Assembly: GCA_001724265.1 (NCBI GenBank)
Contig: MEDY01000331.1
Location: forward strand, 1-33,263
Direction: 5' to 3'
DNA length: 33,263 nucleotides
From: Rhizaria sp. SCN 62-66
Taxonomy: Eukaryota
Of the stretch, positions 2,013 through 33,263 are shown one piece after another. Under the pieces are notes generated by a model. That model saw nothing but the letters and a program-made list of their open reading frames with translations, was not told the DNA's origin and searched no databases. The position numbers and the translations under genes are program-made. The stretch's first letter is position 1. The number at the start of each line of letters is the position of its first letter.

Positions 2013-5000
2013 AGGCAGCCGGGACAGGCGCAGCCAAGTCAGCGACAGCAGCCGGAGCAGCAGCCGGGGCGCTGCTGTCGGCGCTGGGGACGGCGACGGC
2101 GGGCGTGCGCGGCGCGTCGAGGTGCGCGTGCGACGTGGGGGCCGCAGGCGACACGGGCGGGCTTGCACTCGCGTTCGCACTCGCGCTTGCGGGGGACGCC
2201 AGGCTGTTGCCGGATTTGGGCGTCGCGCCCGCGACGACACCAACAGGAGCAGCAGCAGGAGCAACGGCAGCGGCGGCAGCATGGTCGAGTTCGACGTCGC
2301 CCTCGTCGCCCATGTCCTCGTCCTCCTCGTCGGTGTACACGTAGTCCTCCTCCTCGTCCTCGCCGGGCTGTGCGAGCGCGGCCGGGGCGGCGTCGGCCGC
2401 GGGCGCCGCGCTGGGCCGGACCTGCGGCGAGCCCTGGGCCGGCGGGGGCGGCGGGAGCGCGCCGGAGAGATGCGCTTGCGGGCCCGCCGTGCTGGGCTCG
2501 ACGTCCTCCTCTTCCTCCTCGTCCTCGTACTCTTCCTCGTCCTCGTAGACGTTGCCCTCGTCGTCGGCGACCACGGTCATGTGTCCGTGGCCGTCGAGTC
2601 CGCCCGCGAGCATCCCGTCTTTCTTGAGTTCGCGCGCAGCGGCGATCGTCGGCGTCGCGGGCTCGCTCGTGGGGCCGCGCTCCACCACGGGCCGCAGCGC
2701 GGGCGGCAACTCGTCGGCGTACACGCACCCGCCGTCGTCGTCGCCGCTCACGGCGGCCGCGGTGAGGCGCATGAAGCGCTCGCTGGCGTCCTCGCGGTAG
2801 CGCATCACGCGCTGCTCGATCGCGCCGGGCGCCTCGACGTGCGTGAGCCTGCGCGCGCGCGCCCACAGCTCGGCGGGCGCCCACGCCGACGGGGCCGCGC
2901 CGGCGCCCGAGGCGAGGGTCCAGGCCTCGCGCTGGTAGAGCTCGACCTGGAGGTAGAGCACGCCTGTGGGGTGCAGCGCGTCCTGGAAGGCCGACAGTGC
3001 GGCCACGATGAGCTCCACCTGCAGCGGCAGCGACGCGCGCGCCGAGGGCGGCAGGTGCACCAGCGCGGCCGATGCGGCGCCCAGCACGGTCGAGCCGGCG
3101 TCCGCGTTGGCCGCCGCGCCGCCGAGAAAGGCCGAGGCGTTGGTGGTCATGCCGGCGACCGAGACCGAGGCGGCGCGGCCCTGCATCCCGGCGCGGCCGC
3201 CGCGGATCGTCTCGGCGCTCGCGCCGTGGGCCTTGAGCGCGTTGACCGCGGCGACGTTGCCGCCACGCGTCTTGGCGGCGGCCGCGACGCCCAGACGCTC
3301 AAGCCACGAGGGGCCCTGCGTGGCGGAGCACGCCCAGCGCGTGCGCGCGTCGCTGCCGAGGAGCTTGTTGTGCGTGTTGGCGGTGGGGAAGAGCAGCTGC
3401 AGCCGCGCCCAGAGCGCGTAGCCGAGCGCGCGCTGCCAGTGCGTGGCCGAGAACGCCCACGGGTTGACCAGCGTGGCCAGCGACGTGAAGTGGCGGTACG
3501 CCGCGGCGTCCCACTGCGGCGCGAGCGCGAGGCGCACCGTCTTGTGCTGCTGCAGCGCGACGAGCGTGTCGACGAGCGCAGTGATGCAGAGGGCGTCGAC
3601 GTCGCGCGAGTCGTCCCACACGTAGCGCGTGCCGGCGCCCTCGCTCGCGCCGAAGGAGCCGCCACCGCCGAGGTGGCTGTGAGCAGTCGCGCCGTAGCCG
3701 GGGCCGCCACCGGAGCCCAGCTGCGGGCCCATCTCGGGCGCCAGACCCAGCGACACGGCAATGTTGTCCACAACAGCCTGAGAGAGAAAAGAAAAGGAAA
3801 CAAAAGGATAAAAGAAACATCGTGAGATTATCAGAAAACGCCAAGATATGCGTTTGGGGTTTTAGAATGCAGAAATTAGACGTACGAGGTCAACGTGGGC
3901 GTGCGAGGGGAGGTTCACGGTGACGGAGGCGGGGACGGCGCGCGACTGCGTGGTCGCGAGCAGGTCGTCCGACACGGCCGTGGTGGTGTGCGCGCGGTAG
4001 CGTTGCGCGTGGTAGTGCGCGCGCACATGGATCTGGGCCTGGCCGAGCGAGAAGAAGTTGCGCAGCACGGACCAGACTGACACGCCGCGGATCGACGTCG
4101 ACACCGCGGGGCCCTGTTGCTGTTGAGCGCTGGCGGCGGTACCGGCAGTGGCGCCAGCGGCCGCGGCCGCAGTGTTGGGGACGAGGCGGTGCGTGTGCGC
4201 GCGCGCGATGAGCTCCGCGAAGAGCGCGGCGGGCGGGGCGGCGACGACGGTGAGCGGCGAGAGCTCGAACACGTCGGCCGTATGCACGACGAGGGGCAGC
4301 GTGGCGGGCAGCCAGGAGGACAGCGCGATGGGCCGCGTGCGGTGCGCGAGCAGCCCCAGCACGGCGGCCATGTGGCTGGTGCGCGAAATAGGGATGCCGC
4401 CGCCGGGCGCGGGCGTGCGGCGGCGGATGAAGTGGTGGCGCACCTTGGCGTCCAGCAGCACAGCCTCCTCGGTCATTGCCACGCGGCGCGCGGTGTGCAG
4501 GTACGTCAGCACCTGCGGCAGCGCCCAGGCGACCGCCGAGGCCGTGTTGTGGGCCAGCGACGGCACCGACAGCACGGGCGCGCCCGCCGTCGCCATCGCT
4601 GCCGACGCGGCGCCCGCGAACGAGCGCTGCGGCACGGAGAAAACGGCGCTGGCGAGCGTCAGGTGGGGCGCCACGAAGCGGTTGATGGCCTTGGCGAGGT
4701 GGTCAAGCAGGAACAGACGCGCCTTGACGCCCAGTCCGTACAGCGTCGACACGAGCGAGGGCAGGTCGACGAGGCGCGGGCGGCCCGCGAGGCGCTCCTG
4801 CGAGCGCGCGAGCACGGCGGCGACGTTGTCGGCGGCCAGCGAGGCGGCCTCGTCGGCGTCCGAGTCATCCTCGGGGTCCACGGCGCCGCGCCCGGGCAGC
4901 GGCGCGCCGGCTGCCTCGAGCCCGCCCAACGAGGACTGGAGCAACCCGACCTGCTGCAGCCGCAGCCACGCGCTCGAGAGAGCCAAGTCGAGTCCGCGCA

Positions 5001-8000
5001 GCAGCGCCGCGTCGGCCGCGGCTGCGGCGGGGTTCAGCGAAGCCGTGACCGAGGCCGAGCCCGCGGCGCCGGAGGCCGAGGCGCCAGCGCCGCCCGCGGA
5101 AGCAGAGGCGGAGCCAGCCTTGGCGCCGGCGTCGGCAGAAGAACCAGCGCCGTTGTCGCCGCTGTTGTTCTTGTCGCCGCTGCCGTTGCCGCTGCCGTCT
5201 TTGTCGCCGTCGTTGCCCGCGCCGTCGCCGCCGTTGGCGCCGTTGCCGTCGCCGTTGGCACCGCCGTCGTCCTTGCCCTTGCCGCCCGCGCTGCCGCTGC
5301 CGTCAGCGCCGTCACAGTCGCCGCCGTTGCCGCTGCCGTCGGCCGCCATCGCGCCCTCGGTCGCCGTCTTGCCGCCGGCGTTCTTGCTACCCGCGGACGC
5401 GGACGACGCGGATGAGGAGGCCGAGGCAGACGCGGCGGCGGAGGCCGAGGCGTGTGCAGCGCGGAGCTGGGCACGCCAGCCCTCGTGCAGGTGGTACAGC
5501 ACCTTGACCATGTCTTGGTCGAGCGCGGTGCCTGCGGCGGCGACGGCCTCGGCGCGCGTCACGCCCGCGGCCTCGCCCTCGAGCCCGCCACTAGCGACGG
5601 ACGCCGAGGCCGAGGCCGACGATAGACTGCGGCGCGCGGCGCGCAGCACGGCGGCCGGCAGCGCGGGCGCCGGGAGCCAGCGCGTGGCGACGGCCTCGGC
5701 GCCTGCGACGCGGCGGCCTGCGGCGGCGTCGACGGCGTCGAGGTTGGGGTCGGCGAGCCAGACGAAGAGGCGCAGCAGGTGGAACAGCGCCTCGAGCGGC
5801 GGGTGACCCAGCACGAGCTGCCGCACGCGGTCGCTCTCGGGCCGCGCCGCGACCTCGGAGAGCAGGTCGAGCGCGGAGCGGAAGCGGCAGCGCTGGACGA
5901 GAGCGTGCACGAGCGAGAGCACGAGCGCGGCGTTAACGTCGGGCGTGTCGTTGTAGAACGAGTCGTCCACAAGCCGGTTCATCGCGGCCGAGCCAGCGTC
6001 GAGTTCCTGCGCCGTCTCAGCCTCGGCGTTGGCGGCGGCGTCGGCGGCGTCGGCCGCGGCGGCCTCGTCGTCCTCGCTGCCGTTGCCGTCGCGGTCCGCG
6101 CCGCGTTCGTCGTCGTCCTCGTCATCGTCGTCATCGTCGTCGTGCAGCGCGTTGGTGTGGTGGCTGCGGCGCGCGATGCGGGCCGCGCGGCGCATCTGCC
6201 GCTGCGCCTCGCGCTGTTGGCGCGCGATCACGCGGCGCTTCGCAGCGGCATCGCGCAGCGCACGGCGGCGCGCGGCACCGTCCTCGTCGGCCCACGGTAC
6301 GCGCGCGCCGGGCTCGAGCAGAGGGAAGGCCTCGCAGCCGACGAGCGCGACGGGCAGCGTCGCCAGACTGTCAGCCGTCATCATCGCCGGCGTGCGCGCA
6401 GTGTAGCTCGCGAGCGCGCGCGACACGGCGGCGTCCTTGTCGAACTTGGGCAGCGCGGCCAGCGCGGCGGCCGCGGCCGTGACGGGTTTCTTGGCGCGCG
6501 CGGCGGCGATCTGCGCGGGCAGCGTGGGGTGCGCGGCGTCGAACTCGGCCTGCGCGGCGTCCGTGATGGCCGCCACGTGTGTCTTGCGCGCCGCGTTGAT
6601 AAGGTCGGTGACGACGTCGGCGTTGGCGCGCACCTTGGCGCGCGCGGCCGAAGTCGCGCGGTCATACTGCTCCTCGAGCAGCGCGCGCGAGACGATGGCG
6701 ACGCCGTGCTCCTCGTGGCCCAGTTCCGTCTCGATGTGCGCGCGCACGGGCTCGCCGGCCGCGCGGGACAGCGCGTGCACGGCGCCCGCGGCCGCTGAGG
6801 CGCGGGTCGTGTACCAGCCCTCGCTCGACAGCGCCGCGAGCAGCCGCTTGGGGCCCAGCTTTACCGAGTGCAGGTCGTAGACCGTCATGAGCCACATCGC
6901 GCGGGCGCCGCAGCGGCGCGCGGCCAGCGACAGACGCGCGCGCTCGACCGGAGTCAGTCCCACGGCGGGCAGCGGGGAGCCCGCGAAGCGCGCGGTGGCG
7001 ACCGGGGCGGCGTTGGCGGCGATAGGGGCTTCGCGGGCGAGCGCGCGCGCCTTCTCGACGGCGTCGGCGTCGAGCAGTGCGCGCCACGAGGCGGCCGCGA
7101 GCACGAGGGCGCGGATGACCTGCAGCGCGCTCTCGGCACGGTCACGGTCCATGTGCGCGGCCACGGCGGGCGGCACCACGACGCCGCTGGACACGGCCGA
7201 CTGGTGGTCGTGTTGTTGCTGCTGAGCGGAGCGCGCCTGGCTGGCAGCGGCGGCGCGGGTCGCGGCGAGGCGGCCGCGCGAGAGCGGGACGCTGCTGCGG
7301 ACGGCGCTATTGTTGTTGTACCCACCGTAGCCGTTGCCGTCGGCGTCAGCGTCGGCGTCGGCGAGCAGCGAAGACGCGAGCAGACGGCCCGAGGCGCCGA
7401 GACGGAGCGCGGCGACGGCGGACTCAGAGAGCATGTCAGCCGCGCCCATGAGCGCGGTCGCGTGAAGCTTCTCGTCACGCGTCGAGTAGAGCGACTGCGG
7501 GTAGCCGGCGCCGGGGAGCTGCTTGAGCGCGGCGCCGCGGGGGCCCGTGGCGGCGCGGACGGCCTCGATGCGCGGCGGCACGGAGCCAGGCGCCGAGAGC
7601 GACGTGACGGCGGCGTCGACGGGCGGCAGCACGGTGCGCCGCAGCAGCACGGCGGCCGTCTGGTAGTAGAAGGCGGCGCGCAGCGCGAGCGGTGCAGCCG
7701 TGGCGTCGAGCTGGTGCAGCGCCGTGTCGATGAGCGCGGCGCGGTCGGGCGCCGAGACGCCGCCGATGTCCTCGATCGCGGCCACGGCGTCGAGCTCCTG
7801 CAGCAGCGCTGTGTACGTCACCTCGGCCAGCGCGTCGGTCGACGACAGCACGGCGCCGGCGGCGCGTGCGGCCGCGTTGGACGGAGCCGGCGCGGCGCCG
7901 TCGACAACGATAACGTCGTCGTCGTTCTTGCCCGTAGCATCGCCAGAAGCGTCGGAGGAGTCCTTCTTGGACTTGGACTTGGCCTTGTCGTTGCCATCGT

Positions 8001-11000
8001 TCTTGTCGGCGCCGTCCTCGTCGTCGTTATCTTGGTCGTCAGCGTCGTCACTGTCGCCGTCCTTGCTCTCGTCCTTGTTCCCGCCGTTCTTGCCCTTCTT
8101 GCCGCCGGGGTTGTTGTTGCGGCGAGTCTGACGGATCACGAACGAGCCGTCGTGTGCCACGGACACCTCAGTCTTGGTCGCCGCGGCGGGCGCGTTGGCC
8201 GCCACAACGCCCGCAGGCAGCGTGACCAGGCCGCCGGGCAGGCGCGACAGCGGCTCGAGGCCCTCGGTCCACGAGTAGGACAGGAACAGCGACTCAAGGT
8301 AGCGCCGGTCGTAGTCGGTCAGAAACGACTGCAGCGCGAGGAAGCGCTCCCAGAGGTGCTTGCAGACTGCGCGCGACCACGCGGCCTGGCCCAGCCACAC
8401 CTTGCGGTCGCCTAGCCGCACCACAGCCGAGGTCGCGGGCACGGCCACGGGCTCGATGCCGCCGCCGACCGCGTACAGCCCGTGGCTGGCGACGGCCGCA
8501 GCGGCCGCGGCGGCGTCTCCCGCGGCGGCGGCGGCGGCGGCGGCGGCCCCGGCGGCAGCGTGCGCGGCGCGGGCCTTGCCGGCGTTGTACTCCTGACGCG
8601 CGCAGTCCTGGCGGTGCAGCTCGGCGGCAAAGAGCGCGAAGCAGTACTCGGCGGGCGCGTCAGCGCCGCCGTTGGTCTCGTCGTCGACGGTCGCGGAGCT
8701 GATGTGCGCCAGCTGCGCCAGCGCCAGCGCGGCCGGGTCGTCGTCCAGGTCCAGCGCGGCGCGCTCGCGCGGGGTGAGCGTGGCCAGCACCTGCTCGTGC
8801 AGACGGACCTGCGCGTACTTGATCCACGGCGCGGCGGCCGACGGGGACGCAAAGTTGGAGTGAGCCGAGAGCGAGGCCGACAGCGGCGGCTTGGCGAACT
8901 GGCGGCGGCGGAACGCGGCGAGGAAGGCCACGAAGTGCGCGATGGGGTCCGAGGGGAAGCACACGCGGACGAGCGTGCGCAGCATGTTAAACTGCCCCGT
9001 CTGCAGCATCGTCGACATAAGCAACGCGACCTTCTCCAGGCGCTGCGCGTTGATGTCGGCCAGACCGGCGTAGAGCGCGTTGCGCACAACTACCGCGTTC
9101 GCGCCAGCAGCACCACTAGCAGGGGCAGCCGAGCTGGAGGCAGAGTCAGCAGCGCTATTGCTCACGGTCATGACCTGGAGCTCGGGGACTGCAATCTTGG
9201 CCGAGAGCGCCTTGTCCTTCCCGTCGGGCCACGCCAGCACGTAGCGCGACGGCTTGGACACGATGTCGAGGATAGCCTGGAGCGGGAGACCGCGGGAGCG
9301 GTCCTTGGGCGGCGCGGCGAAGATCATCTGCGCCAGCCAGACCTGCTCGCGCTCGGTCAGCACGACGACGTGCTGGAGCACGCGCTCGACCACGGTCATG
9401 GCCTCGTGGTCGGCGGCGATCTGCTCCGCGCCCGCCGAGGCCGCTGAGGACAGCGCCTCGTACGACGGAGGAGCCGTCATGACACCGCCGCGGCGCGGGG
9501 GCAGCGCGAGGATCTGCGCCAGCACGGCCGAGGGGCGCAGGCCGGTCTGGAGCAGCGAGAGTAGCACCGTGACGAGCTCCGTCTCGGCCGTCTTCTTCTC
9601 CAGGTGCGCGTCCACGTCCGACACCGGGACGGGCTTCTCGTTGGCCGCGACGGCGGCCGCGGCCGCCGCAGCGGTGGAGCCCGGGGCGGGGTACGTGGTG
9701 TCGATCGTGGGCGTCGCGCGCCACCACTGGTCGAGCTCGAGCGGGAGCGGGACGTAGAAGAGCAGGCACAGCGACGCTACGACGCGCAGCACGTGGCCGG
9801 GCGGAGGGATCACACCCGAGAACGACTGCACAGGCTGGCCCTTGAGCTTGATCGGACTCGCGCCGGCGCCCGCGACGGGGATGCCGTGGGCCGAGGCCGC
9901 GGTGTAGTAAACCGTGACGAGTGCCTTGATGAGCCACCACAGCTCGGCATCCTCCTTGACCGCGGGGTCGTAGATCAGACTGCTGGCCGCGGGCCACGCT
10001 TGACCCAGGTCGCCCAGGTGCGTCCAGCGGCCCGCGCGTGCCAGGCCCTGCGCCAGCGCCACGGACGCCAAGTCCTGCGTCGTCGCGTGCGCCGTCGCGG
10101 CGGGCTTCGGCGGCAGCGCCAGCGGGGAGCGCACGCCCGTCGTGTCGAACTCGGCCGCGGCCGCGATGGCCGTGGGGTTGTACGCGTCCGCGATCCACTC
10201 GACGGCGATGGTGCACAGCGAGAGGCACAGCGAGTACATGTGGGTCACGGGCACCGAGCGCGGGCCCGTGCCGGCCGCCGCCGCGGAGGCGGACGACGCC
10301 GCCTGCGCGTGCCGCGCCGCCGCAGCCTTGGCGCTCGCCGCGGCCGCCACAGCGGGGTCCACGGCCGCCGCGCCGCGCGCGTTGATCGACGCGGCGCTGC
10401 TCGCGGCCGCGGCGGCGGAGGCCGTGCGGGCGAGCGCGCCAGTGGCGACCGAGGACTGCCCGCGCTCGCGGTTGCTGCACGACTCGACGACCTGCGCAAA
10501 GGCGTGGCAGCAGTCGTTGAGGCGCTGGAACATGAGCAGCCACGCCAGGCACCCGTCGGGGTCCGCCAGTGCGCGCGCCAGGGCAGCCTTGAGGCGGTCG
10601 TACTCGGCCGCGGTCTCCGCTGAAGACGCAGAGCCGTTGTAGTAAAAGTCGCCCAGGGACGGGTTTTTCAGCACGATGACAGCGTTGGTGATGGCGAGAC
10701 CGGTCTCGTTCTTGACCACGAGCGTCGGCCGCTTGCCGTCGTCGTCGTCGCTCTCGTCGGCGTTTTCCTCCGCGTCGGCCTGCTTGGCCGCTGTCGCGCC
10801 GCCGCCGCCGCGGTTGCGGCCCGTGGCCACAAGCGCCTTAATCGGGTCGAAGTTGCGCAGCGCCAGCCGCGCCGCGGCCGTGCAGAGCCGGTGGCACAGC
10901 GTCTGGATGAGCAGCGGGTCAAACAGCTCGCCACTGGCCGTACGCAGGTAGCCGGGGGGCGCGCCGCCCGCGCCCGAGAGCGACTCGGGGGACGCGGCGG

Positions 11001-12913
11001 CGAGCGCGACGGCGCGGCGCTGGTGCTCCCATGCGATGCGCAGCCCGGCGTTGAAGCCGGCCAGCGCGGCGTGCATCGGCGCGCAGCGCGAGAGCCAGTG
11101 GACGCAGAACTTCTCGAAAAACTCGATGAAGACGTCGATGAAGGTGCCCGAGCGCGCGGCGGCGACGGCGCGGCCGCGGGCGGCGGAAAAGATGTGCGAG
11201 ATGTGGTAGCCCAGGTCCTGCAGCGCAGTCGACAGCGACACGGGGCGCGCGGGCGTGAAGGCGAAGTGCACGCCGCGGTAGTCGCTAGGGTAGAAAGAGA
11301 AGAGCATGTCGTCGAGCGCGTTGTAGGGCTGCAGCGGTACCACGAGCGGGCGCGTCTGGAAGGCCGTCAGCAGCATCACCTGGCGCTCGGGGCGCGGAAC
11401 GAAGCGCAACAGGTGCTTGAAGTTGATGTTGGCGACGTCGCCGGCGTGCTCGGCGAGCGGCTCGAGCGCGTACCACGCGCGGTACGCCTGCAGCGCGGGG
11501 GTGAGCCCGGACGCGTTGAGGTAAGAGCACATGAAGCGATGAAACGGCGAGTACTTACCGAACGGCAGCAGCGCAGAGAGCAGCGCGTTGCGGGTGAAGG
11601 CCTGCTTGGCGGCGCGCAGCTTGTGGTACTCGTCGAGGCTCTCGCCGAACGTGGGGTCGTGGTCCAGGTGCGGCGACAGCGCCAGAGACTCGCGATCGTT
11701 GCGCTGCATGAAGAGCAGGCCAGCACGCGTGAGACGCATGACCACGCGCGTGAAGTCAATCGGCGCAAAGCCGGCAGACGCGGAGCGCACAAACGCAGCG
11801 GTCGAGTAGGGCTCCTGCAGTGAGCCGCCCGCGCCGCCGGAGCCAGAGCTCGAGCTGGAGCTGCTGCTGGTGCTGCCGTTTGCAGTGTCGAGAGCGCCGG
11901 TGACGCGCGCGGCGTGTGAAAGTGAGAGCTGGACGTCGTGCGGATGGATGCGCGTAATACCGAACAGCGCGCGGTTCGCGGGCGTCGACTGGGCCGCGTC
12001 CGCAGCGGCAGACGGGCCCACGGTCGTGAGCGCACGGGCCAGAGCCTCGGCAGCCTGAGGATGAGCATAAAAGACAGGATAAAACATAAATATGAGGATG
12101 CGTTCAAAAAGTAGTTCAATATATGTTTAATTCGAGTTTTGAACGTCTTAAATAGAGAGTTTCAGCTTATGCAGTTTCATATATAAAGCAAGAGCTCCAT
12201 TGATAGATAGATGTAACGCTGCGCTTGTTTCGATCGAGACATACCTGAGCGGCGACCTCGAGCGTGGGCCCCGCGTCGGGGGTGTTGCGCTGCGAAGCCC
12301 TTAGCTTGTTCATCTGCACCTTAGCAAGCGCTGCAGCCGTGAAGAAAGAGACTTCCTGGCGCAGAATAACGCCGCGGCGCGCGAGGTCGTGCAGGATCAT
12401 CTCCTGGAACGGCGGCGGCGCGCGCGCGACGATTGAGGCGAGCACGTGGGGGAACGCGGGCGGCAGCGTGGGACGGCCCATGAACACATACGACATGTCC
12501 GAGGTCTGGTTGAGCGCGGCGCCATTGACGAGGAGGCGCGCGTCGTGCGGGGACAGCGCGCAGCCTTCAAGCGGGAGGTAGTGGATCCACCACCTTACCC
12601 AGTCGGCCTGCTGGTGCTGTATCGCGCACCACAGCTCTGTGAAGTCGGGCGCGGGGAGCTCGGGGGAGATGGGCGTGGAGGCCGAGATCAACCGCATGTT
12701 AATGAGAAGGGACAGGAGCGCCTTGCGCTGCTTGGGGAAGCGCGCAGCGAGCTCGTAGACCTTGCCGAGAGGGAGACGACGCCCGTGGTTGTGTCCGCAG
12801 GGCTCGAGCAGGTCGACGTGGAAGAGCATCTCTTGCACGGTTTTGTGAATGGAGACGATATCTGACACAAGCATGTGCATGTGCAGCGCCTCGAACAAAA
12901 GGTCGAGGCTCAT
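1831..12913 (-). CDS. SPG11: Spatacsin (SPG11)-like alpha-solenoid protein, ~3,594 aa; complement(join(12245..12913,3886..12054,1831..3777))
   Basis: Three ORF-track ORFs join in phase 0 through introns 12055-12244 (GTATGT..CAG) and 3778-3885 (GTACGT..CAG). Collinear motifs recall spatacsin: ELWCAIQHQQADWVRWWI, EMILHDLARRGVIL, DFTRVVMRLTRAG, FHRFMCSYL, LVRVCFPSDPIAHFVAFLAAF, YDRRYLESLF, ALGYALWARL, VELIVAALSAFQDALHPTGVLYL. Start codon uncertain. Confidence 0.7.
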
Positions 12914-22282: not shown

Positions 22283-24280
22283 TCACTTTTTGGCGTTTTT
22301 CTTCTTTCCGCCAGAAATAACCACAGGCACATCTTGCCCGCCGCCGACACTGGCGCTCGCACTGCGGCCAGCAGCAGCGCTGCCGGCATTGCTCGCTTCC
22401 GCCGTAGCCGCGTCCGCAGCGACGGACTTACTGGTCCCCGCATACCCCTCGTAGAAGTACTTCTTGGTGTTGGCTTTGGCCAGCGCGTGACCAGCACTTC
22501 CCGGACCGGCGGAGCCGCCGAGCACGCTGCGGGCGAACTGCGCGTCCGCCTCAGCCGTCGCCGCGTCCGCCGCCGAGGCCTGCAGCCACGGGAACTGCGG
22601 CTGCGCAGGGGAAACGGCCAGCGCGGTCACCGCTCTGCCGCCGTCACCGGCACCGCGGTCACCGGCGGTGGCGTCGGGGGGCCGGTACAGCCCGGCGCCC
22701 GAGGGTAGCGAGCCGACCGCGCCCGCGCCGCTCTTGGCGCTGAAGCTGCCGGGCTTGTAGCTGCCGGGCGTGGAGCCCGCGAGCGAGGAGTTCCGGCTCC
22801 GCTGCGCCTGCTGCGGGTCGCCAGCGCCGGCGACGGCCACACCGCCGCCCGCCTCGCATGTGCCGTCGCTGTTGTAGCTGTACGCGTCGCCGTTGTTGCA
22901 CCCGCTGTTCCGATTGCCGTTGTTGCTGACAGCGCTGTTCTGTGTGTTGCTGCGCTCGCGCGCCTTTTGTGCCGCGTAGTAGATATTCACACCCGAAATC
23001 TCGTCGAACATCTCGTCTTCAGCCGCGGCGGGCTCAATCACCGGCTTGTACTGCTTCTTGCCCCCCGCCGTGCCGAGACTCGCGCCGACGGAGCTGCCGC
23101 TCAGGACGTGGCCGGTCTTGTTGCTGAAGCTCGTGCGGCCCGCAGATCCGTTGGTTGCGGCCGCGGCGGCGGCTGGGGCTGAGGAGACGTTCATCGGGCC
23201 GTTTGAAGGCCCCGCACTGTACACCTGGCCGTTGAGCGACACAAAGCCTGCCGCGGTCGAGTTGGCCGCGGCCGCCAGTGGGGCCACGGCGGCAGAGTCG
23301 CTCCGACTCATGTCGGTATTGTTGTGATCCGAGAACTGCACGTAGTCAGCGCCGCCGTCGTTGCTGCCGTCGTCGCCGCCGCCGCTGCTGTCGATGCGGA
23401 ACTCTGGCGCACAACAGTCACAGTAGCGCGCCTTGACGCGCCGCAGCAGCCGCGCCCACAGGGTGAGGTTACGGCCCGAAAAGGCGAAGCAGAAGGTGAC
23501 CCAGAGCCCGCACGAGGCGAGCATAAACGTGTGGGCAATGGTAAGGCTGTAGTTGTAGCGCGAGGTGTAAGAGCTGGAGATGCGGACCGTGAGCAGGGTG
23601 GTGAAGTAGGCGCAGAAGACGATCATGAAGAGCATGTAGCGGCCCGAGACGATCGTGAGCAGCGTGCGGCGCGCGGTGCCCAGGTCGGCACGGTGCGCGT
23701 GGTACTGGTGGTACAGTGAGGACGGCAGCAGGTAGAACATGACGATGCCGACGAGCACGAACCATGAGTAGAAGAGCACGAACTGGGAAAAGGCGCTGTG
23801 TTCCGAGGTCGCGACGAAGCAGAACCAAGACTTGCGCTCCATGTCGATCTTGTCCCACAGCGCGGCGATGAACAGGAACACAACAGGGAGCCCAAAAGAC
23901 GCGGTGACGTAGGTGCTCTCGGCGGCCTTCATGTCGCCCGCGACGCGGCCCTGCGTGATCGAGAGGTGGAAGTTGAAGCAGATGAGCATTCCCCAGAGCC
24001 ACGTGGCGAAGGCAAAGTAGTACATCCCCACGGCCTGCAGCACGCACGGGCAGTTGTTCACGCCCAGAATCGTAAAAAACGCCATGCCGGTGGTGGAGAA
24101 TCCCAGATAGGCGGGGAGCCGCGTGGGAAAGTGCCGCCGCGAAGGGAAAATGGTGTATGAAAGCAGCGTGAAGACCGAGGCGAGGAGCGAGATGTAGGCG
24201 AAGATGTGACCCACAGTCCGCGAGTCGTCCTGGAGCGCCGCCAAGTTCAGCGCCAATGGGTGGGCAAGCAGGGACGACAT
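22283..24280 (-). CDS. Seven-transmembrane GPCR-like receptor (cAMP-receptor/GCR1/frizzled-like clan), 665 aa with long disordered C-tail
   Basis: Seven hydrophobic segments in the first ~270 aa; RRHFPTRL in loop 1, CVLQA..MYYF...TWLW...ICFN at TM3, WFCFV in the second extracellular loop, YCDCC after TM7. Single exon, stop TGA. Confidence 0.82.
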   Translation of the reverse strand: MSSLLAHPLALNLAALQDDSRTVGHIFAYISLLASVFTLLSYTIFPSRRHFPTRLPAYLGFSTTGMAFFTILGVNNCPCVLQAVGMYYFAFATWLWGMLICFNFHLSITQGRVAGDMKAAESTYVTASFGLPVVFLFIAALWDKIDMERKSWFCFVATSEHSAFSQFVLFYSWFVLVGIVMFYLLPSSLYHQYHAHRADLGTARRTLLTIVSGRYMLFMIVFCAYFTTLLTVRISSSYTSRYNYSLTIAHTFMLASCGLWVTFCFAFSGRNLTLWARLLRRVKARYCDCCAPEFRIDSSGGGDDGSNDGGADYVQFSDHNNTDMSRSDSAAVAPLAAAANSTAAGFVSLNGQVYSAGPSNGPMNVSSAPAAAAAATNGSAGRTSFSNKTGHVLSGSSVGASLGTAGGKKQYKPVIEPAAAEDEMFDEISGVNIYYAAQKARERSNTQNSAVSNNGNRNSGCNNGDAYSYNSDGTCEAGGGVAVAGAGDPQQAQRSRNSSLAGSTPGSYKPGSFSAKSGAGAVGSLPSGAGLYRPPDATAGDRGAGDGGRAVTALAVSPAQPQFPWLQASAADAATAEADAQFARSVLGGSAGPGSAGHALAKANTKKYFYEGYAGTSKSVAADAATAEASNAGSAAAGRSASASVGGGQDVPVVISGGKKKNAKK

Positions 24281-26039: not shown

Positions 26040-26970
26040 TCTAACGACGTGCTATGATCTGATGCTACCTTGATTTAACGCAACACTAATCAATTTTTTT
26101 CTAGTTGGCCTGCGTCAGATGTTGTGGTTTTGTCCCACATTGCGCTGTTTCTATCGCAACACCGTCATCGATCCGTTGGCGCGCACCTGCTGTTTGTGGC
26201 AGTTCTTCTTGACTCTTGACAACGACGTTTGGCACATCCGATCATGTTTCCACGTTGTCTACGTCCGCATCGCGCGAAGTTATTTGTCCGGTTTCTGATT
26301 TTTTCCACGCTTTGCGCATGTGTTTGGCGTTTTGCGTCTCGCGCCGTGTTTGTTTTACTCCGTGACTTGCGTATTTGTTGCCCCCTCTGTCAACACGCTC
26401 TCTCTGTCGTTTTAACGCGCGTACATTGAGCTAAGGTGTAGAGTTTGCGACGTGTGGTGTGAATTAACTGTATTAGTGACAATGTGACGTGCATTTACTC
26501 ATATGTGTGACGTGTTTAACTCGGGGCACGTAGCATCGCCGTCGCCTCCGTCGCCACCGTGGTCGCAACCGTGGTCGCCACCATAGCCGCCACAGCAGCC
26601 ACACTATGGGTGCCATTACACTACCCGTCGCCTGACGTCATTCATGCTTCTGTGTTGTGTTTTTGTTTCAGACAAGTTTTTGTAATAACTAAGTCACATA
26701 GTCGGAAATGTCAACTTTTGTCAGTTGAGTATCATTTTTTTTTCTTTGACACGTTCCCAACATTGTCATGACGCTCTTACAGAACATGGAATAACGTGCG
26801 ACGGTCACTCGGCATAAGGAACACGATGCGAACGTGTGTTTTGATCTATTAATACTTTTTGACTTTTGCAATCCTTCGTCCAACAGCTCACTCATTCGCA
26901 ACATCTCTTTGTTCTCTTTTTCCTATTTCTTTTTGTGTGTTTCGTTGCTTCACAGGGTACACCGAGGGAA

Positions 26971-29900
26971 ATGGATCCAATTCCACCTCAACCCTCGAGC
27001 GGTGGCGGTGGCGCTGGCGCTGGCGCTGGCTCCAAGCACGACAGCGAGGGTGACGCGACCGCGGCCACTCTCGCCGCGCTCTCCGCCGCCGCCACGATGC
27101 CCCACAACGACGACAACAACAACAACAGTAGCAAGAGCCGCCGCAACCATGACGCCAAGGGCGGCGAGCAGGGCATCGAGCTGGCGCTGCTGGCGCCTGA
27201 GGCCACCACGGTCGGTTTGCTCCCGTCCGCGCTGGTCTCGCCGCTGCACGACGACGACGAGGACCTCGAGCCCGTCGTGCTGGCCGACGAGAAGGACGAT
27301 GAAACCGCGGAAGAGGCCGCCGAACGCAGGGCCAAAGAAGAAGCCGCGGCCAAGGAGCTGGCGATGTTCAACGCTGTGCCTTTCGGCAAGCTCTTCCGCT
27401 TTGCTGACAACCTCGACGTCACGATGATGTGTTTCGGCACCCTCGGCGCCGTCGGCGCGGGCGCGCTGTTCCCGGCCTTTTCCCTCATCTTCGGCCAGCT
27501 GCTGGACGATCTGAACGGCGACGGCGACTTCATGACCTCTGTGATCAACCTCGCGTACACTTTCCTGTATATGGGCGCCGGTATGGGCGTCGGCGCGTAC
27601 CTTTCCGTGTCGATGTTCATGACAACGTCGGAGCGCCAGTCGAAGATCATGCGCGAGGAGTACCTCTCTGCGCTGTTGCGGCAGGAGATTGGCTGGCACG
27701 ATATGCAGAATACCGGAGATTTGGCGGTAAAGCTAACTTCTGAGACCCGCAAGGTCCAGGACGGTCTTGGTGACAAGTACGTCAATACTGCCTCACCTTT
27801 TTAAGTCTTTGATATGTTTTTTTTGAGATTTGAGAACTTCAATATTATATTAGCACTTCTATATTTGTTTTGAGGTCATCGTTTTTTCATTTATGATTCG
27901 CTCACACATTCTACCGATCTGTTGTCTTTTCGCTGTCATTTTCAGGCTTGCTCAAGTTTTGCAGCAGTCGTCATGCTTTCTTGCCGGCTTCGTCATCGCC
28001 TTTTACAAGGGCTGGGAGTTGACTCTGGTGATTCTTGCGACGCTGCCCGTGCTCATGGCGTGCGGCGCCTTCATGGGCTTCGTCATGGCTGGCGCCAACG
28101 CCGAGGAGCAGAGGAACGACGGTGAGGCCGGCGTCATCGCCGGCGAGGCCATCTCGGGCATCCGCACCGTCGCCGGGCTGCAGTACGAAGACAATCTCAT
28201 CAAGCGCTACATTGCGCGCGTTTCAGACTCGTTTGTCGCCGCCGTGCGCAAGGGCTGGATGCAGGGCGTCGGCATCGGCGCGTTCATGCTCGTCATTTTC
28301 TCAGTCTACGGCCTCGGTCTCTGGTACGGCTCCGTGTTGCTACGCGACGGCAAGGACCGCTGGCCCGGCTTGCCCTACACCGGCGGCGACGTCGTGGCGA
28401 TCTTCTACGCGCTCATCACAGCCACCATGGGCGTGTCGCAGGCCGCGCCGCACTTCGCCGCGATCGTCACCGCGCGCTGCGCCGCGCGCCCGCTGTACGA
28501 CGTCATCGACCGCGTGTCCAAGATCGACGCGCTGGACCGTCTCCGCGGCAAGAAGCTTGCCTCTGTCACGGGCGACATCACGCTCGAGCGCGTTACGTTC
28601 ACCTACCCGTCGCGCCTCGAGACCCAGGTCCTCAAGGATCTGTCGCTGTCGTTTGCCAGCGGACAGACCATCGCGCTCGTCGGCGCGTCGGGCTGCGGCA
28701 AGTCCACGATCATGCAGCTCATCGAGCGCTTCTACGACCCCGACCAGGAGCGCGTCAAGCCCACGGGCCTCGCGGCGGTCGCTGAGGACCACAACGCCGA
28801 TGGCAACAAGGACGCCAGCGCTGCCAACGCTACCGGCGCTGCCGGCGCTGACACCAAGACTGCTTCTGCAGCGGTTCCTGTTTCTGCGACTGCGTCTTCT
28901 TATGCTGCCCCTGCTGCTGCTGCTGCTGTTAATGCTGATGCTGCTCCTGCTGCTGATGTCGCCGCCACCTCTGCTGCTTCCGCAGCTGCTGCTGAGGATG
29001 AGGAGCCGTTCGTGGTTGGCCGCGTGCTTGTGCGCGGCTGCATTGCGAGCGCCGACGGCCCGGGCGAGGAGTGCGATACCGACCTCCGCGAGCTTAACGT
29101 GGCTTCGTGGCGCGAGCACGTTGGCATGGTCGCCCAGGAGCCCGTGTTGTTTGCGGGCACGATTAAGGAGAACATTCTGTACGGCCGCCCCGACGCCACG
29201 GACGACGAGATCCGCGCCGCTACAATCGCGGCCAACGCGCACGGGTTCATCAGCAAGATGAAGAAGGGCTACGACACGTACGTCGGCGAGGGCGGGCGGC
29301 TGCTCTCCGGTGGCCAGAAGCAGCGCGTGGCGATTGCGCGCGCACTGGTCAAGAACCCGCGCATTCTGCTGCTTGACGAGGCGACGTCTGCGCTCGACAC
29401 CGAGTCCGAGCGCATCGTGCAGCGCGCGCTGGACAAGGTCATCGGTGACAAGTCGAGCCGGCGCACGACGCTGGTGATTGCACACCGCTTGTCGACGATC
29501 AAGAACGCGGACCGTATCGTGGTGTTTGACATGGGCCGCATCGTTGAGGACGGCACGCACGACGAGCTGCTCGTCAAGGGCGGGCTCTATGCCAGCATGG
29601 TCCATGTGAACAACACCGACGCGACCGGTGGCGCTAACGGCAAAGCCGCTACTGCAGCAGCGGGCGACGCTGGCACTGATCTTGCGAAGAGTGACAGCGC
29701 TGTGAGTGCGAGCAACAACGACGGCAACGCGAACGACGAGGAGGACGATGAGGAGGACGAGGTTGTGGACGAGGACGGCGGCGACGCCGCTGCTGGCGCT
29801 GCTGGCGGTAGCGTCGCCAGTACTCGAGAGCATAGTCGCGTGTCTCTGTCCGCCGAAAAGACCACTGGCGCCGCCGAGACGCGCATCACGATCCCCGAGG

Positions 29901-32128
29901 GCAACAACACCAGCAACGCGAGCAACGACGCCGACGGCAGCGACGCCGCGGGCCTCAAAGGCGATGACGGCTCGAACAAGGATGACGCTAAGCCGCTCAA
30001 GTCCGGTATGCCAGGTCTGCTGCGCTACGCACGCCACGAGTGGTTCCGCCTCTCGCTGGGCATTCTTTTTGGCATCTGCGAAGGCGTGTCGTTCCCGCTT
30101 TACTCGCTGCTCATGTCCAAGATGACCGACTCGTTCTACTTCACTGACACGAGCAAAATGATGGACGTGACGCGCTGGTACGCCTTCTACTTCTTCCTCC
30201 TTGGCCTCGGCGCCGGGACGGCCGTGCTGCTGCGCTCCGGGCTGCTCGCTATTGCAGGCGAGGAAATGGTGCAGCGCGTGCGCGGAGACCTGTTCAAGGC
30301 CATCATGCGGCAGGAGATTGGCTGGCACGACCGCGAGGCCAACGCCGCCGGTGTGCTGCAGACGAAGCTGTCCGCCGACGCGTTGCATGTGCGCAACATC
30401 GTCACCATGCGCCTCGGTCTGCTCGTCAGCATTATCGCCAACGTGTGCGCCGGCTTTATCATCTGCTTTGTTCGTGGCTGGCAGATGGCGGTCATCATGC
30501 TCGCTGTATTCCCCGCGCTTGCCGGCGCCGGTGTTATGCAGTTCATGTTTGTCATGGGCTTCGGCTCGCGCTCGAAGAAGGCGATTGAACGCGCAGGTCA
30601 AGTGGCGACCGAGTCTGTGGCCAACATCCGCACTCTCGCGTCCTTCAACGGCGAGCTCGCGCTGCTGCAGCGCTTCTCAGCGTCGCTTCAGCAGGGCCTC
30701 GACGTCGGCCTGAGCTCGGCGCAATTCGCCGGTATCGGCTTCGGTGGTGCTAATTTCATTATTTTTGCAGCGTATGCGCTGTGCTTCTGGTATGGTGGCC
30801 GTCTCGTGTACCGCGAGGATATTACCTTCGAGACGATGTTACAAGTCTTCCTGTCTTTCGAAATGTCGTGCATGATGGTTGGCCAGCTTTTCCAGATCCT
30901 GCCTGACTTTGACAAGGTCTCCGCCGCCGTCGCCGACGTCATCGACATCATTGACCGTGATTCGGCCATCGACTACTCGAGCCCCGCAGGCGAGGACGCG
31001 CCCGTGACTGACGGTGAAATCCGCTTTGAGAACGTCTTCTTCCACTACCCGACACGGCCTGACATCAAGGTGCTGCGTGGGTTGTCTTTCACGGCGACGG
31101 GCAAGCGCACGCTTGCCATCGTTGGCGAGTCCGGCTCTGGCAAGTCCACTGTGTTCTCTCTGATTCAGCGCTTCTACGACCCGGTGCGCTCCGTCGAACT
31201 ACCCACCGGCTCCGAGACCAAGATCGTCACTGCTGCCGCCGCCGCCGCGACTGCTGATTTCGCAGCCGACCCCAACGTTGTCTCTGCGGCCACAGTCTCC
31301 GCTGCGCTTGCTGCCGCCGCCGCCAGCTCCGCTGACGCATCCGTTGTTGACACTGCTGCTGCTTCTGCCGACGCCGATGAGCTTCCTGCGGGCCGCGTTA
31401 CGATCGACGGGACTGACCTGACTACGATGCGCCTGGCTCACTTGCGCTCGTTCCTCGGCATCGTCGGCCAGGAGCCAACTTTGTTTTCGGGCACAATTGC
31501 GGACAACATCCGCTGCGGCGACCGCGAGATCACGCAGGACATGATCGAGTCGGCGTGCAAGCTGGCAAATCTGCACGACCTCATCTCGCGCCGCTTCCCT
31601 CGCGGCTACAAGACCCAGGTCGGCCCCAAGGGCGCGCAGCTCTCGGGCGGCCAGAAGCAGCGTGTGGCGATTGCGCGCGCCATCGTGCGGCAGCCCAAGG
31701 TGCTGCTGCTGGACGAGGCGACCTCTGCGCTTGACTCGCGCGCGGAGCGTCTCGTGCAGGATGCCCTGAACAAGGCGATGGAGGGCCGCACCACGGTGCT
31801 CATCGCGCACCGGCTCGACACGGTCAAGCACGCCGATGCCATTATCCTGGTCGCCGAGGGCAAGGTTGCCGAGGGCCCCGCGACGCATGATGAGCTTGTC
31901 GCGCTCGACGGCAAGTACGCCAAGCTCGTCGCCGCGGCTTCGTTGACGGGCTCGCTCGAGGCCGCCGATGCCAAGAAGGACAAGGACGGCAAGAGCGGCG
32001 GCAAGACTGACGGAAAGGGCAAAGGTGGCAAGGATGGCAAGAGCAACAAGGGCGCTAAGGGCGTCGAGGACGCAACGTCTGCGACTGCGGCAGGTGCTGA
32101 TGTCTCCAAGGCGGCCCCTGCAGCGTAA
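26971..32128 (+). CDS. ABCB1: Full-length ABCB (MDR/P-glycoprotein-like) transporter, ~1,662 aa; join(26971..27776,27946..32128)
   Basis: TMD-NBD-TMD-NBD. VPFGKLFRFAD, LRQEIGWHD, Walker A GASGCGKS and GESGSGKS, two LSGGQKQR signatures, two LLLDEATSALD, IAHRL. Phase-2 intron 27777-27945 (GTACGT..CAG). Stop TAA. Confidence 0.96.
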
Positions 32129-32716
32129 TTGCCATATCCCAAACCGTATTTTTCATTTTCTACGTGTTGCGGGTAACAAATGCACTTGTCTGTACATAGT
32201 CTCAGTCGTTCAGTTCATTGCTGTACGTTATCTATTTATTAGTTCTTCGTTTTGCTTTAATTTGAATGTTTTCACTTGTTTTCTCCTGCGTTTTTTGTAC
32301 CTTGATATTTTTTCTTGCTTGTTTGTGGCTGTTATTTTGTTCTGTTTTTGCATCGTTTTCGTGTTTTTTTTTTGGTCGTTGTTGTTGCTTAGTTTTGTTG
32401 TTGTTCTGTTTCTCCCGTGTGTTCAGATCAGAGATGCGTTAAGTCTCAATCAGGAGTCTTCTCTCTGTATTCGTCGACCAATAACTTTTTCTCATTCTAT
32501 TTGTTCATGTTTGTGGTGATCTAGCTCACCTAAGAGTATTGTGCGATGTTTGTTTGACAGCAGTAACCAATGATGCGAGCAAGATCGATATTCTAGCGCA
32601 ACTATATTACGCTGACTATTAAGTACGAAAGACTACAATCAAAGCTATACTCACAAAAAATATAAAACAAAAAAAGGTAAAAGGCAATTGCCAAAACCCA
32701 CCACCGCCAAGTGGTT

Positions 32717-33006
32717 GTGTCTACCGTCTTATAATCAGTTAAATCTGGATTTACTTTTTTTACTAACGGAATAGTGTTGTTAGTGTTGTATTTCGTAATG
32801 ATGTTTTTCCAAACGATACAGACAAGTAGTACACAGATGGCCGACGACGGCCATGGTGGTTGTGCAACCGTCTTGTACAGACAAATTGGACACACCACTG
32901 TTAGTGTTGTGGGCTGTGAGTGTTAACCGTCTTGTACAGACAAATCATACACACCATCACCATCACCACACAAGTGTTGACCGTCTTATACAGACAAGTC
33001 ATACAC
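32717..33006 (-). repeat. Array of four ~33-nt hairpin repeats with unique spacers in a 3' UTR
   Basis: Plus-strand core ACCGTCTT(G/A)TACAGACAA(A/G)T in copies 32861-32894, 32920-32952 and 32974-33006, plus a split copy 32717-32733 + 32816-32834; period 54-59 nt. Confidence 0.85.
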
Positions 33007-33052
33007 GGGGTGTGGGTGGTTGTTGGCAGCCCAGCCGCGCAGAGCCGGGTCC

Positions 33053-33262
33053 TTAGGTGTCACCATGCGTGCAGACGCCCAGGCCGAGGTTCCAGATCTC
33101 CTTGCACGTGCCGGCAGTGGTGCCGCAGTCGGACTGGGTCTCGCAGAGGATACCGCAGAACCAGTAGTCCTCGTACACGAAGGTGCAGATGGCGGGCGCG
33201 CAGAGGGGGTCGGTGGGCTGGACGCAGGTGGAGATGGGAGGGAACTCGACCTCGAGATCGGG
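33053..33262 (-). CDS. C-terminal end of a Cys-rich, probably secreted or lumenal protein (5' partial, runs off the window)
   Basis: PDLEVEFPPISTCVQPTDPLCAPAICTFVYEDYWFCGILCETQSDCGTTAGTCKEIWNLGLGVCTHGDT then TAA; strong GC3 bias, 8 Cys in 69 aa. The pattern recalls the Cys-rich C-terminal extension of some protist papain-family proteases (tentative). Confidence 0.75.
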   Translation of the reverse strand, partial: PDLEVEFPPISTCVQPTDPLCAPAICTFVYEDYWFCGILCETQSDCGTTAGTCKEIWNLGLGVCTHGDT

Positions 33263-33263
33263 C

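Follow-up and report, generated by a model that had tools for sequence, protein, structure and literature searches.

Genomic setting of the Cys-rich gene

The stretch of DNA analysed here (hereafter the window, 33,263 nt) is the entire contig C331 of a eukaryotic assembly of 34.9 Mb in 714 contigs, and it contains GT-AG introns and coding blocks rich in G+C. At its far end, on the minus strand, lie the last 69 codons of a gene for a Cys-rich protein (33056..33262; GC3 0.91), whose reading frame leaves the contig end, followed by a TAA stop codon (33053..33055) and, starting 46 nt past this codon, by the row of hairpins that concerns us here. The gene is convergent with an ABCB transporter gene ending at 32128. 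The latter (26866-32128, plus) encodes a full ABCB-type transporter with long Ala/Asp-rich insertions in both nucleotide-binding regions, and the minus strand of the window further holds an Ala-rich open frame of 2741 aa (3862-12087), for which a Pfam search gave no match, and a seven-transmembrane-like protein (22283-24280) whose membrane region matches Frizzled/Smoothened (E 1e-8) and which has a long tail of low complexity. Sequencing runs that contain the array stretch are metagenomes of wastewater, sludge and biofilm.

The 69 codons are identical to residues 179-247 of P0003, a full protein of 247 aa. Its layout, by reading, is a hydrophobic, signal-peptide-like N-terminus, an Ala/Pro-rich linker and a Cys-rich C-terminal domain, with 11 Cys within residues 152-242, and P0003 would by this reading be a secreted Cys-rich protein. 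A Pfam search of P0003 returned no family and a search for solved relatives none (best E 0.83), and folds from single-sequence models were rejected as too poor (pLDDT 47.8 and 38.2). Protein searches returned the same cluster and three weak matches, nothing else: two of these (P0004 and P0005) look like chance and were dismissed as relatives, and the third, P0006, an unnamed secreted protein with three repeats, matches P0003 at E 3.7e-4 with 9 aligned Cys and had no match itself in the host genome. The nearest Atlas clusters comprise unnamed eukaryotic proteins with scores of at most 0.84, the nearest being mostly Cercozoa at 0.84, under the tool's bar; one weak structural row (TM 0.33) leads to a cluster of papain-family proteases. 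Possibly, the Cys-rich domain (P0003 residues 139-247, three times in P0006) is widespread in protists, with no fitting Pfam family. The protein, metagenome, viral and prokaryote searches found no orthologue of the gene from another species.

A row of hairpins after the stop codon

Structurally, each intact unit of the array is 33 nt long and consists of a basal helix, a one-base bulge, a 4-bp lower helix, a bulged U, a 5-bp upper helix and a loop. The upper helix is made of a U-G pair, in which the U that partners G is ambiguous, and the four Watson-Crick pairs of GUCU/AGAC; the bulged base beneath it is U in 8/8 intact copies. Hairpin 1 (32974..33006, minus) has the lower stem UGAC/GUCA and the loop GUAUA, which is GCACA in run X1; hairpin 2 (32920..32952, minus) has UGAU/GUUA and GUACA; and hairpin 3 (32861..32893, minus) has CAAU/GUUG and GUACA, the latter being GUAUA in run X1. 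Hairpin 4 consists of a 5' arm (32817..32834, minus; lower stem CUAC) and a 3' arm (32717..32731, minus; lower stem GUAG), which are separated by an A+T-rich insertion of 85 nt in its loop (32732..32816, minus) with a duplicated TA. Units recur with a period of 54-59 nt and are separated by spacers of 21-27 nt. The 13-mer GTCTGTAYAAGAC occurs three times exactly and four times at two or fewer mismatches in the window, against 0.5 expected, and none of 100 shuffles reached four.

The first-pass annotation, which had counted four copies of this hairpin, was right about the array, but only three copies are intact, the fourth being split by the 85 nt. Its four lower stems read as it wrote them, and its claim of strand-specific pairing holds, with 16/16 lower-stem positions paired on the minus strand versus 13/16 on the plus strand. 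It had also called the upper stem and a GUAYA loop invariant: the upper helix is indeed free of paralogue and allele differences, but GCACA loops occur in run X1 and in the paralogous array on contig C47 described below. The common (A)CAC end stands with the qualification that the A of ACAC is missing from unit 3, whose basal stem pairs in a shifted register. Finally, the spacers, said to be unrelated, are mostly so, but the sequences that follow units 3 and 4 resemble each other (P 0.001; one of the 10 pairs tested) and the C47 array contains a duplication of 85 nt. We also note a small G+C-rich hairpin predicted in the spacer between units 3 and 4 (32837..32854, minus), additional hairpins predicted to flank the array (33007-33052 and 32690-32716, minus), and AC-rich and GU-rich spacers that are predicted to be able to lengthen the unit stems.

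Constraint and folding

The four ancient units agree at 17 of 20 core positions. Identity within the core is 0.9-1.0, and ungapped flanks are 0.0-0.38 identical in 11/12 comparisons and 0.6 in the remaining one. On the mRNA strand all nine stem pairs are kept in each of the four units (36/36: 29 Watson-Crick, 7 G-U, 0 A-C and 0 other), with one lower-stem position showing four pair types (G-C, G-U, A-U and U-A) and another two (U-A and C-G). Under a mutation null of random substitution to the observed divergence, all 16 lower pairs were kept in 9/76,971, 16/68,132 and 87/55,281 cases at transition biases of 1, 3 and 6, respectively (frequency 1.2e-4 to 1.6e-3), and at frequencies of 6e-4 to 2.6e-2 when the number of substitutions was fixed at 6-8. 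When the 3' halves were permuted among the four units, all pairs were kept in 2/24 cases. Covariation among 8 intact copies (7 distinct; the split unit 4 left out, the C47 chimera included) was not significant against shuffles, 101-304 of 500 reaching the observed values, and lower-stem covariation comes from four units at a single locus.

Thermodynamically, the fold z-score is -2.97 for the minus strand versus -1.45 for the plus strand, and single units have predicted energies of -7.9 to -12.5 kcal/mol. In the full UTR, hairpin 1 is predicted to form with a pairing probability of ~1.0; units 2 and 3, in the unconstrained ensemble, mostly pair with each other (local hairpin ~0.1), and the all-local fold is 1.5 kcal/mol worse than the unconstrained best. 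Once base pairs may span no more than 60 or 80 nt, units 1-3 form their upper stems with a probability of at least 0.93, and hairpin 2 forms at 0.94-0.99 with spans of at most 80 nt, the same folding caveat applying to hairpin 3. The proposal that selection acts on RNA structure rather than on a simple repeat draws on a core fixed amid diverged flanks and on 36/36 pairs kept, but covariation fails the shuffle and permutation tests; we consider the case for selection on the local RNA fold, with redundancy among copies, good but not conclusive.

A paralogous array and its recombination

A second contig, C47, ends at the identical base and carries the same 69 codons, with 4/210 nt differing, all at synonymous third positions. 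The shared 5' part of the gene is absent from the assembly, as expected of a collapsed duplicate, and L132, an independent contig from a metagenome, carries N at four sites, by inspection those that distinguish the paralogues. The C47 UTR (L008:9480-9747, at the G000:C47 contig end) contains five units: 1, 2 and 3 come first, then a chimera that combines the 5' arm of unit 4 with the 3' arm of unit 1, and finally a further copy of unit 2; the duplicated block of 85 nt has a spacing of 172 nt. From the chimera and the repeat of unit 2 we conclude that the array recombines via its shared core and that unit number varies. The duplicate of unit 2 is closer to unit 2 of the window than to that of C47 itself, which hints at exchange between the paralogues.

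Three of the nine units are damaged: unit 4 of the window is split, unit 1 of C47 has lost two pairs, and the chimeric unit 4 of C47 has two mismatches. The eight paralogue differences inside hairpins comprise two that break a pair, two that keep one, two in bulges, two in loops and none in the upper helix.

The split fourth hairpin

The 85-nt insertion is present in place in a contig of run X2 and is therefore not an assembly error. Two poly(A) contigs of run X6 contain look-alikes in other surroundings, their flanks diverging at the same TA boundary, and no second copy was found elsewhere in the assembly. Most likely, a short mobile element inserted here at the TA of a GUAUA loop, abolishing one apex; its source may be unassembled repeats, or it may be shared with a relative. 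The stem of unit 4 is predicted to form across the insertion at ~0.99, provided that the transcript extends that far. An intron was considered and rejected: the ends look minor-class-like by eye, yet splicing would not rebuild the hairpin, and the X1 RNA contig keeps the first 34 nt of the insertion. Searches of the genome for U12 and U6atac, run without a positive control, found neither.

The array in RNA libraries

Contigs covering the arrays come from RNA libraries of three studies, two of them linking coding sequence to hairpins (4 of 14 runs were examined, and the contigs, which have neither strand nor 3' end, could be DNA carry-over). The X1 contig, 552 nt, runs from coding sequence through units 1-3 and the 5' arm of unit 4 into 34 nt of the insertion, ending at 32783. 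It carries four differences, three at loop positions 2 and 4 and one that turns a G-C pair into G-U, and X1 shows no other coverage within the 1364 nt compared. In X6, a poly(A) contig links coding sequence with unit 1 of the C47 type; the C47 junction is present in X6 and X10, the latter continuing beyond unit 5, and in one X6 contig a change at the base of unit 3 breaks a pair. The expectation that the array lies in the transcript is supported by these contigs (X1, X6 and X10), with X1 and X6 joined to coding sequence.

Distribution of the element

Rfam gave six weak matches in 31900-33263 (E 1.1 to 9.9), all far under the cut-offs, and hence no family for the array region, nor was any match at gathering score found in L008 or L132. 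Within the assembly, the 13-mer at one or fewer mismatches occurs 48 times versus 50 in a reversed control, and its 10 exact occurrences are seven in the two arrays and three singletons with no flanking stem. A 20-mer at up to three mismatches gave 13 matches versus 10 in the control; the eight perfect ones are all inside arrays, and of the five outside, the two inspected do not fold like a unit. A relaxed upper-stem pattern gave 17 matches versus 12 in the control, the nine outside the arrays having at most 2/4 lower pairs and none scoring with model R1, and a loop-only pattern gave 816 versus 839, the first 100 of these matches being inspected. In these sequence-pattern searches of 35 Mb, from which units with a wholly different stem sequence would escape, the element is located only after the two copies of the Cys-rich gene.

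Beyond the assembly, a 16-mer scan of metagenomes found at least 119 stretches. Among the 120 matches examined, two had the full lower stem, and among the matches listed both of these lie in L132, in the same Cys-rich gene. The two-copy pattern occurred in 0 viral contigs and 0 prokaryote genomes. The literature covered, which included few subscription papers, contained no record of the exact 13-mers or of GUAUA/GUACA pentaloops, nor of tandem stem-loops with an RNA-binding protein in protists; within this scope we found no published description of the element.

Relation to known hairpin systems

The loop, described by the first-pass annotation as one it did not recognise, does belong to a described class. 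Its consensus is G-Y-A-Y-A (variants GUAUA, GUACA and GCACA), varying at positions 2 and 4 only, with U at position 2 in 7/8 intact assembly units; G at position 1, a purine at 3 and A at 5 place it among GNRNA, more narrowly GYAYA, pentaloops. According to PMC9830547, GNRNA loops resemble GNRA loops in having a sheared G-A pair, their fourth base is flipped out, and they include a named CGYAYAG family represented by a CRISPR repeat bound to an endoribonuclease. A GNRNA loop is also reported for boxB and for the eIF4G-bound stem-loop of viral 3' translation elements (PMC3597692), and yeast U6 is described as having a GCAUA loop with this sheared-pair geometry (PMC2275091); the pentaloop comparison also drew on bioRxiv 2025.04.11.648485. 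By analogy, the array loops would have a sheared G1-A5 pair with the fourth base flipped out. Solved CGYAYAG loops have a C-G closing pair, whereas the array has U-A. Compared with lambda boxB and CGYAYAG CRISPR repeats, whose role in protein docking is known, the array shares the G-Y-A-Y-A loop and a short stem but sits in a eukaryotic mRNA tail on a bulged, two-part stem. Its lower stems differ and its spacers, 21-27 nt long, are partly related or duplicated, unlike the identical repeats and unique, constant-length spacers of a CRISPR array. We take the endoribonuclease of the CGYAYAG representative structure to be Cas6f/Csy4. A search for cas6f/csy4 (PF09618) gave 0 matches in the incomplete assembly, with a positive E. 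coli control.

Transferrin receptor mRNA carries an array of five IREs, and the array had been likened to it. In architecture the comparison stands: both have hairpins of ~30 nt with two helices, a 5-bp upper helix, one bulged base and a conserved apical loop (RF00037), in several copies per 3' UTR. In detail it does not. The array has a five-base GYAYA loop and a bulged U, where the IRE has a six-base C-AGU-G-N loop and a bulged C, and it shows an extra lower bulge, a non-animal host and a gene that is not a known iron gene. The IRE-type upper helix is present (U-G plus four Watson-Crick pairs), but the C14-G18 cross-loop pair, the AGU triplet and the unpaired N19 are absent from the array loop, and with four of the five IRE features given in PMC8466369 lacking, the array is not an IRE. 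The Rfam IRE model had no match in 31900-33263 (E <=10) and none at gathering score in L008 or L132, and RF00037 had none over the genome (run without a positive control). PMC8466369 keeps protozoan cases out of the IRE family, and the array is only loosely similar to protozoan 'IRE-like' hairpins, which have a GGCACA loop and a GUU/UUG motif (PMC12845348).

A resemblance to U6 comes from the host itself, whose U6 snRNA (L153:1501-1602 = G000:C54:166524-166625, minus) has the internal stem-loop apex CU-GCACA-AG. This 9-mer is identical to that of C47 unit 4 and X1 unit 1, and the consensus of all intact units, CU-GYAYA-AG, includes it. With the U6 internal stem-loop (PMC2275091), the units share the apex, the sheared G-A pentaloop class and a bulged U lower in the stem; only the apex matches in sequence, however, the array bulge is on the 5' strand, and other U6 features are absent. 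Since this loop is used separately in many systems, convergence is the simpler reading. MAT2A offers a precedent: its 3' UTR hairpins share METTL16 with U6 (PMC9778287), and like the array they are several conserved hairpins in one 3' UTR of one gene, with a loop motif shared with U6. The METTL16 nonamer UACAGAGAA is absent from the UTR by reading of its sequence; the likeness of the array to U6 concerns the internal stem-loop apex, not the methylated motif, and its units are short and closely spaced. BTE stem-loop I likewise carries a GNRNA loop on a short stem within a 3' UTR, where eIF4G binds it (PMC3597692), but the array belongs to a cellular gene, its units are repeated and it has no hub of 3-6 helices; the 17-nt BTE consensus is absent from the UTR, and no BTE-type Rfam match was found. 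The 69 codons of the window contain no UGA and end in UAA, P0003 contains no U and no Rfam SECIS match was found. A SECIS goes with an in-frame UGA in its gene and has a tandem G-A core, and the array does not qualify as one.

Interpretation

The sequence pattern, the pairing pattern, the presence in RNA libraries and the restriction to two paralogues are matters of observation, and they are, in our best reading, those of a lineage-specific, multi-copy protein-binding element in a 3' UTR. We give a probability of roughly 0.57 to the array being a docking element in multiple copies through which stability or translation of the Cys-rich mRNA is controlled, in the manner of an IRE array or of the MAT2A hairpins but belonging to neither family. 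A protein site is suggested because the bases of the loop, upper helix and bulge are fixed while those of the lower stem are free but paired. The array would be a cis-acting 3' UTR element of a duplicated gene for a secreted Cys-rich protein, in which a sequence-specific RNA-binding protein would most probably recognise three features set a constant distance apart (loop, fixed upper helix and bulged U), like IRP on an IRE; the lower 4-bp helix would be partly free in sequence as long as its pairing is kept. Three to five copies could give stronger or graded binding, and the bound protein would set mRNA stability or translation. The fold in the cell, the loop geometry, the protein reader and the regulatory output are what we infer from these patterns.

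Among the readings that do without a regulatory protein, an unlikely one is purely structural: GNRA-like loops would dock in neighbouring helices, compact the UTR and slow 3'-to-5' decay. The strongly folded UTR (z -2.97) with spacers that extend stems is consistent with this, as is the description of GNRA-type loops as common docking modules (PMC12550061), but stability leaves the fixed A-U-rich upper helix, the bulged U and the U-G pairs unexplained, and single units are weak (-7.9 to -12.5 kcal/mol). Nor does a neutral minisatellite, an old tandem repeat whose palindromic core was homogenised by gene conversion and template switching with no RNA function, have more than a small chance of being right. 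Recombination is plain in C47 (chimeric unit 4, duplicated 85-nt block), damaged units are tolerated and the shuffle tests are non-significant; conversion, however, should yield lower stems that are alike, not different yet paired, and palindrome correction should erase bulges and G-T pairs, both of which persist, on one strand only (7 G-U, 0 A-C). Conservation is, moreover, limited to the stem and loop positions 1, 3 and 5. The least probable reading, already largely refuted, places the signal at the DNA level, as remnant terminal inverted repeats of a small transposon of which unit 4 would be a longer form. The arms of unit 4 do pair around 85 nt, and G-T pairs stabilise single-stranded DNA too. 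Against it, the 35 Mb contain no dispersed copies, all units have the same orientation after a stop codon, and look-alikes of the inner 85 nt lack hairpin arms, so the insert is separate.

Two further readings keep a protein but give the units another task. It is improbable that a stem-loop endoribonuclease cuts each unit, CRISPR-like, to end or destabilise the transcript or to process it into small RNAs, although the repeat-spacer layout (33-nt units per 54-59 nt) suits such an activity and the GUAUA and GCACA loops fit the CGYAYAG family, whose representative in PMC9830547 is a CRISPR repeat with its endoribonuclease. The closing pair is U-A rather than C-G, Cas6f/Csy4 (PF09618) is unmatched in the incomplete assembly, one uncut contig spans three units, and the spacers are low-complexity and partly related. 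More improbable still is mimicry of U6, in which the units would imitate its internal stem-loop apex and thereby attract a factor that binds U6, as with MAT2A and METTL16 (precedent from PMC9778287). The host's own apex, CU-GCACA-AG, is the 9-mer of C47 unit 4 and X1 unit 1 and fits CU-GYAYA-AG, but the match spans 9 nt only, loop position 2 is U, not C, in 7/8 intact assembly units, and the helix under the apex is unlike that of U6. The loop class, furthermore, arose separately in boxB, CRISPR repeats and viral 3' elements, and convergence suffices.

Returning to the protein-docking element, we also entertain a bolder version, which we regard as doubtful: a row of GNRA-like pentaloop hairpins, with the loop of CRISPR repeats and of the host's own U6, would recruit a U6-binding factor or an undescribed stem-loop-reading protein or nuclease and thereby govern one secreted protein, with unit number, changed by recombination, as the dial. 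If true, the array would amount to a switch of the IRE or MAT2A type, but with a new reader and from a protist lineage with no described example. To our knowledge, structured 3' UTR elements that occur in multiple copies and have a defined reader come mostly from animals (IRE, MAT2A) and viruses. The array concerns one gene pair in one species, a free-living protist of wastewater and biofilm communities. Practically, the unit is short and easily synthesised, and its natural variants flag loop positions 1, 3 and 5, the upper helix and the bulged U, so that a pull-down for a new RNA-binding protein is directly possible; a compact hairpin-protein pair would be a potentially useful RNA tag.

Other features of the assembly

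Elsewhere in the assembly, divergent ubiquitin genes (L140, L143, L144, L146 and L147) with the N-terminus MSMQIFVK are either dispersed monomers, each with a short tail, or fusions of the eL40 kind. No polyubiquitin junction was seen among them, several being broken at contig ends; with the mostly cercozoan Atlas cluster and the SSU rDNA described next, this is a hint at the host's lineage and no more. A very divergent SSU rDNA spans 4445 nt of contig C706 (L154:1501-5945, G000:C706), which is assigned to the same assembly and may be another organism's, and contains several large group I intron-like insertions. One of these carries an open reading frame for a His-Cys box homing endonuclease (~2158-2640; PF05551, E 1.3e-14) and appears nested with more intron-like sequence.
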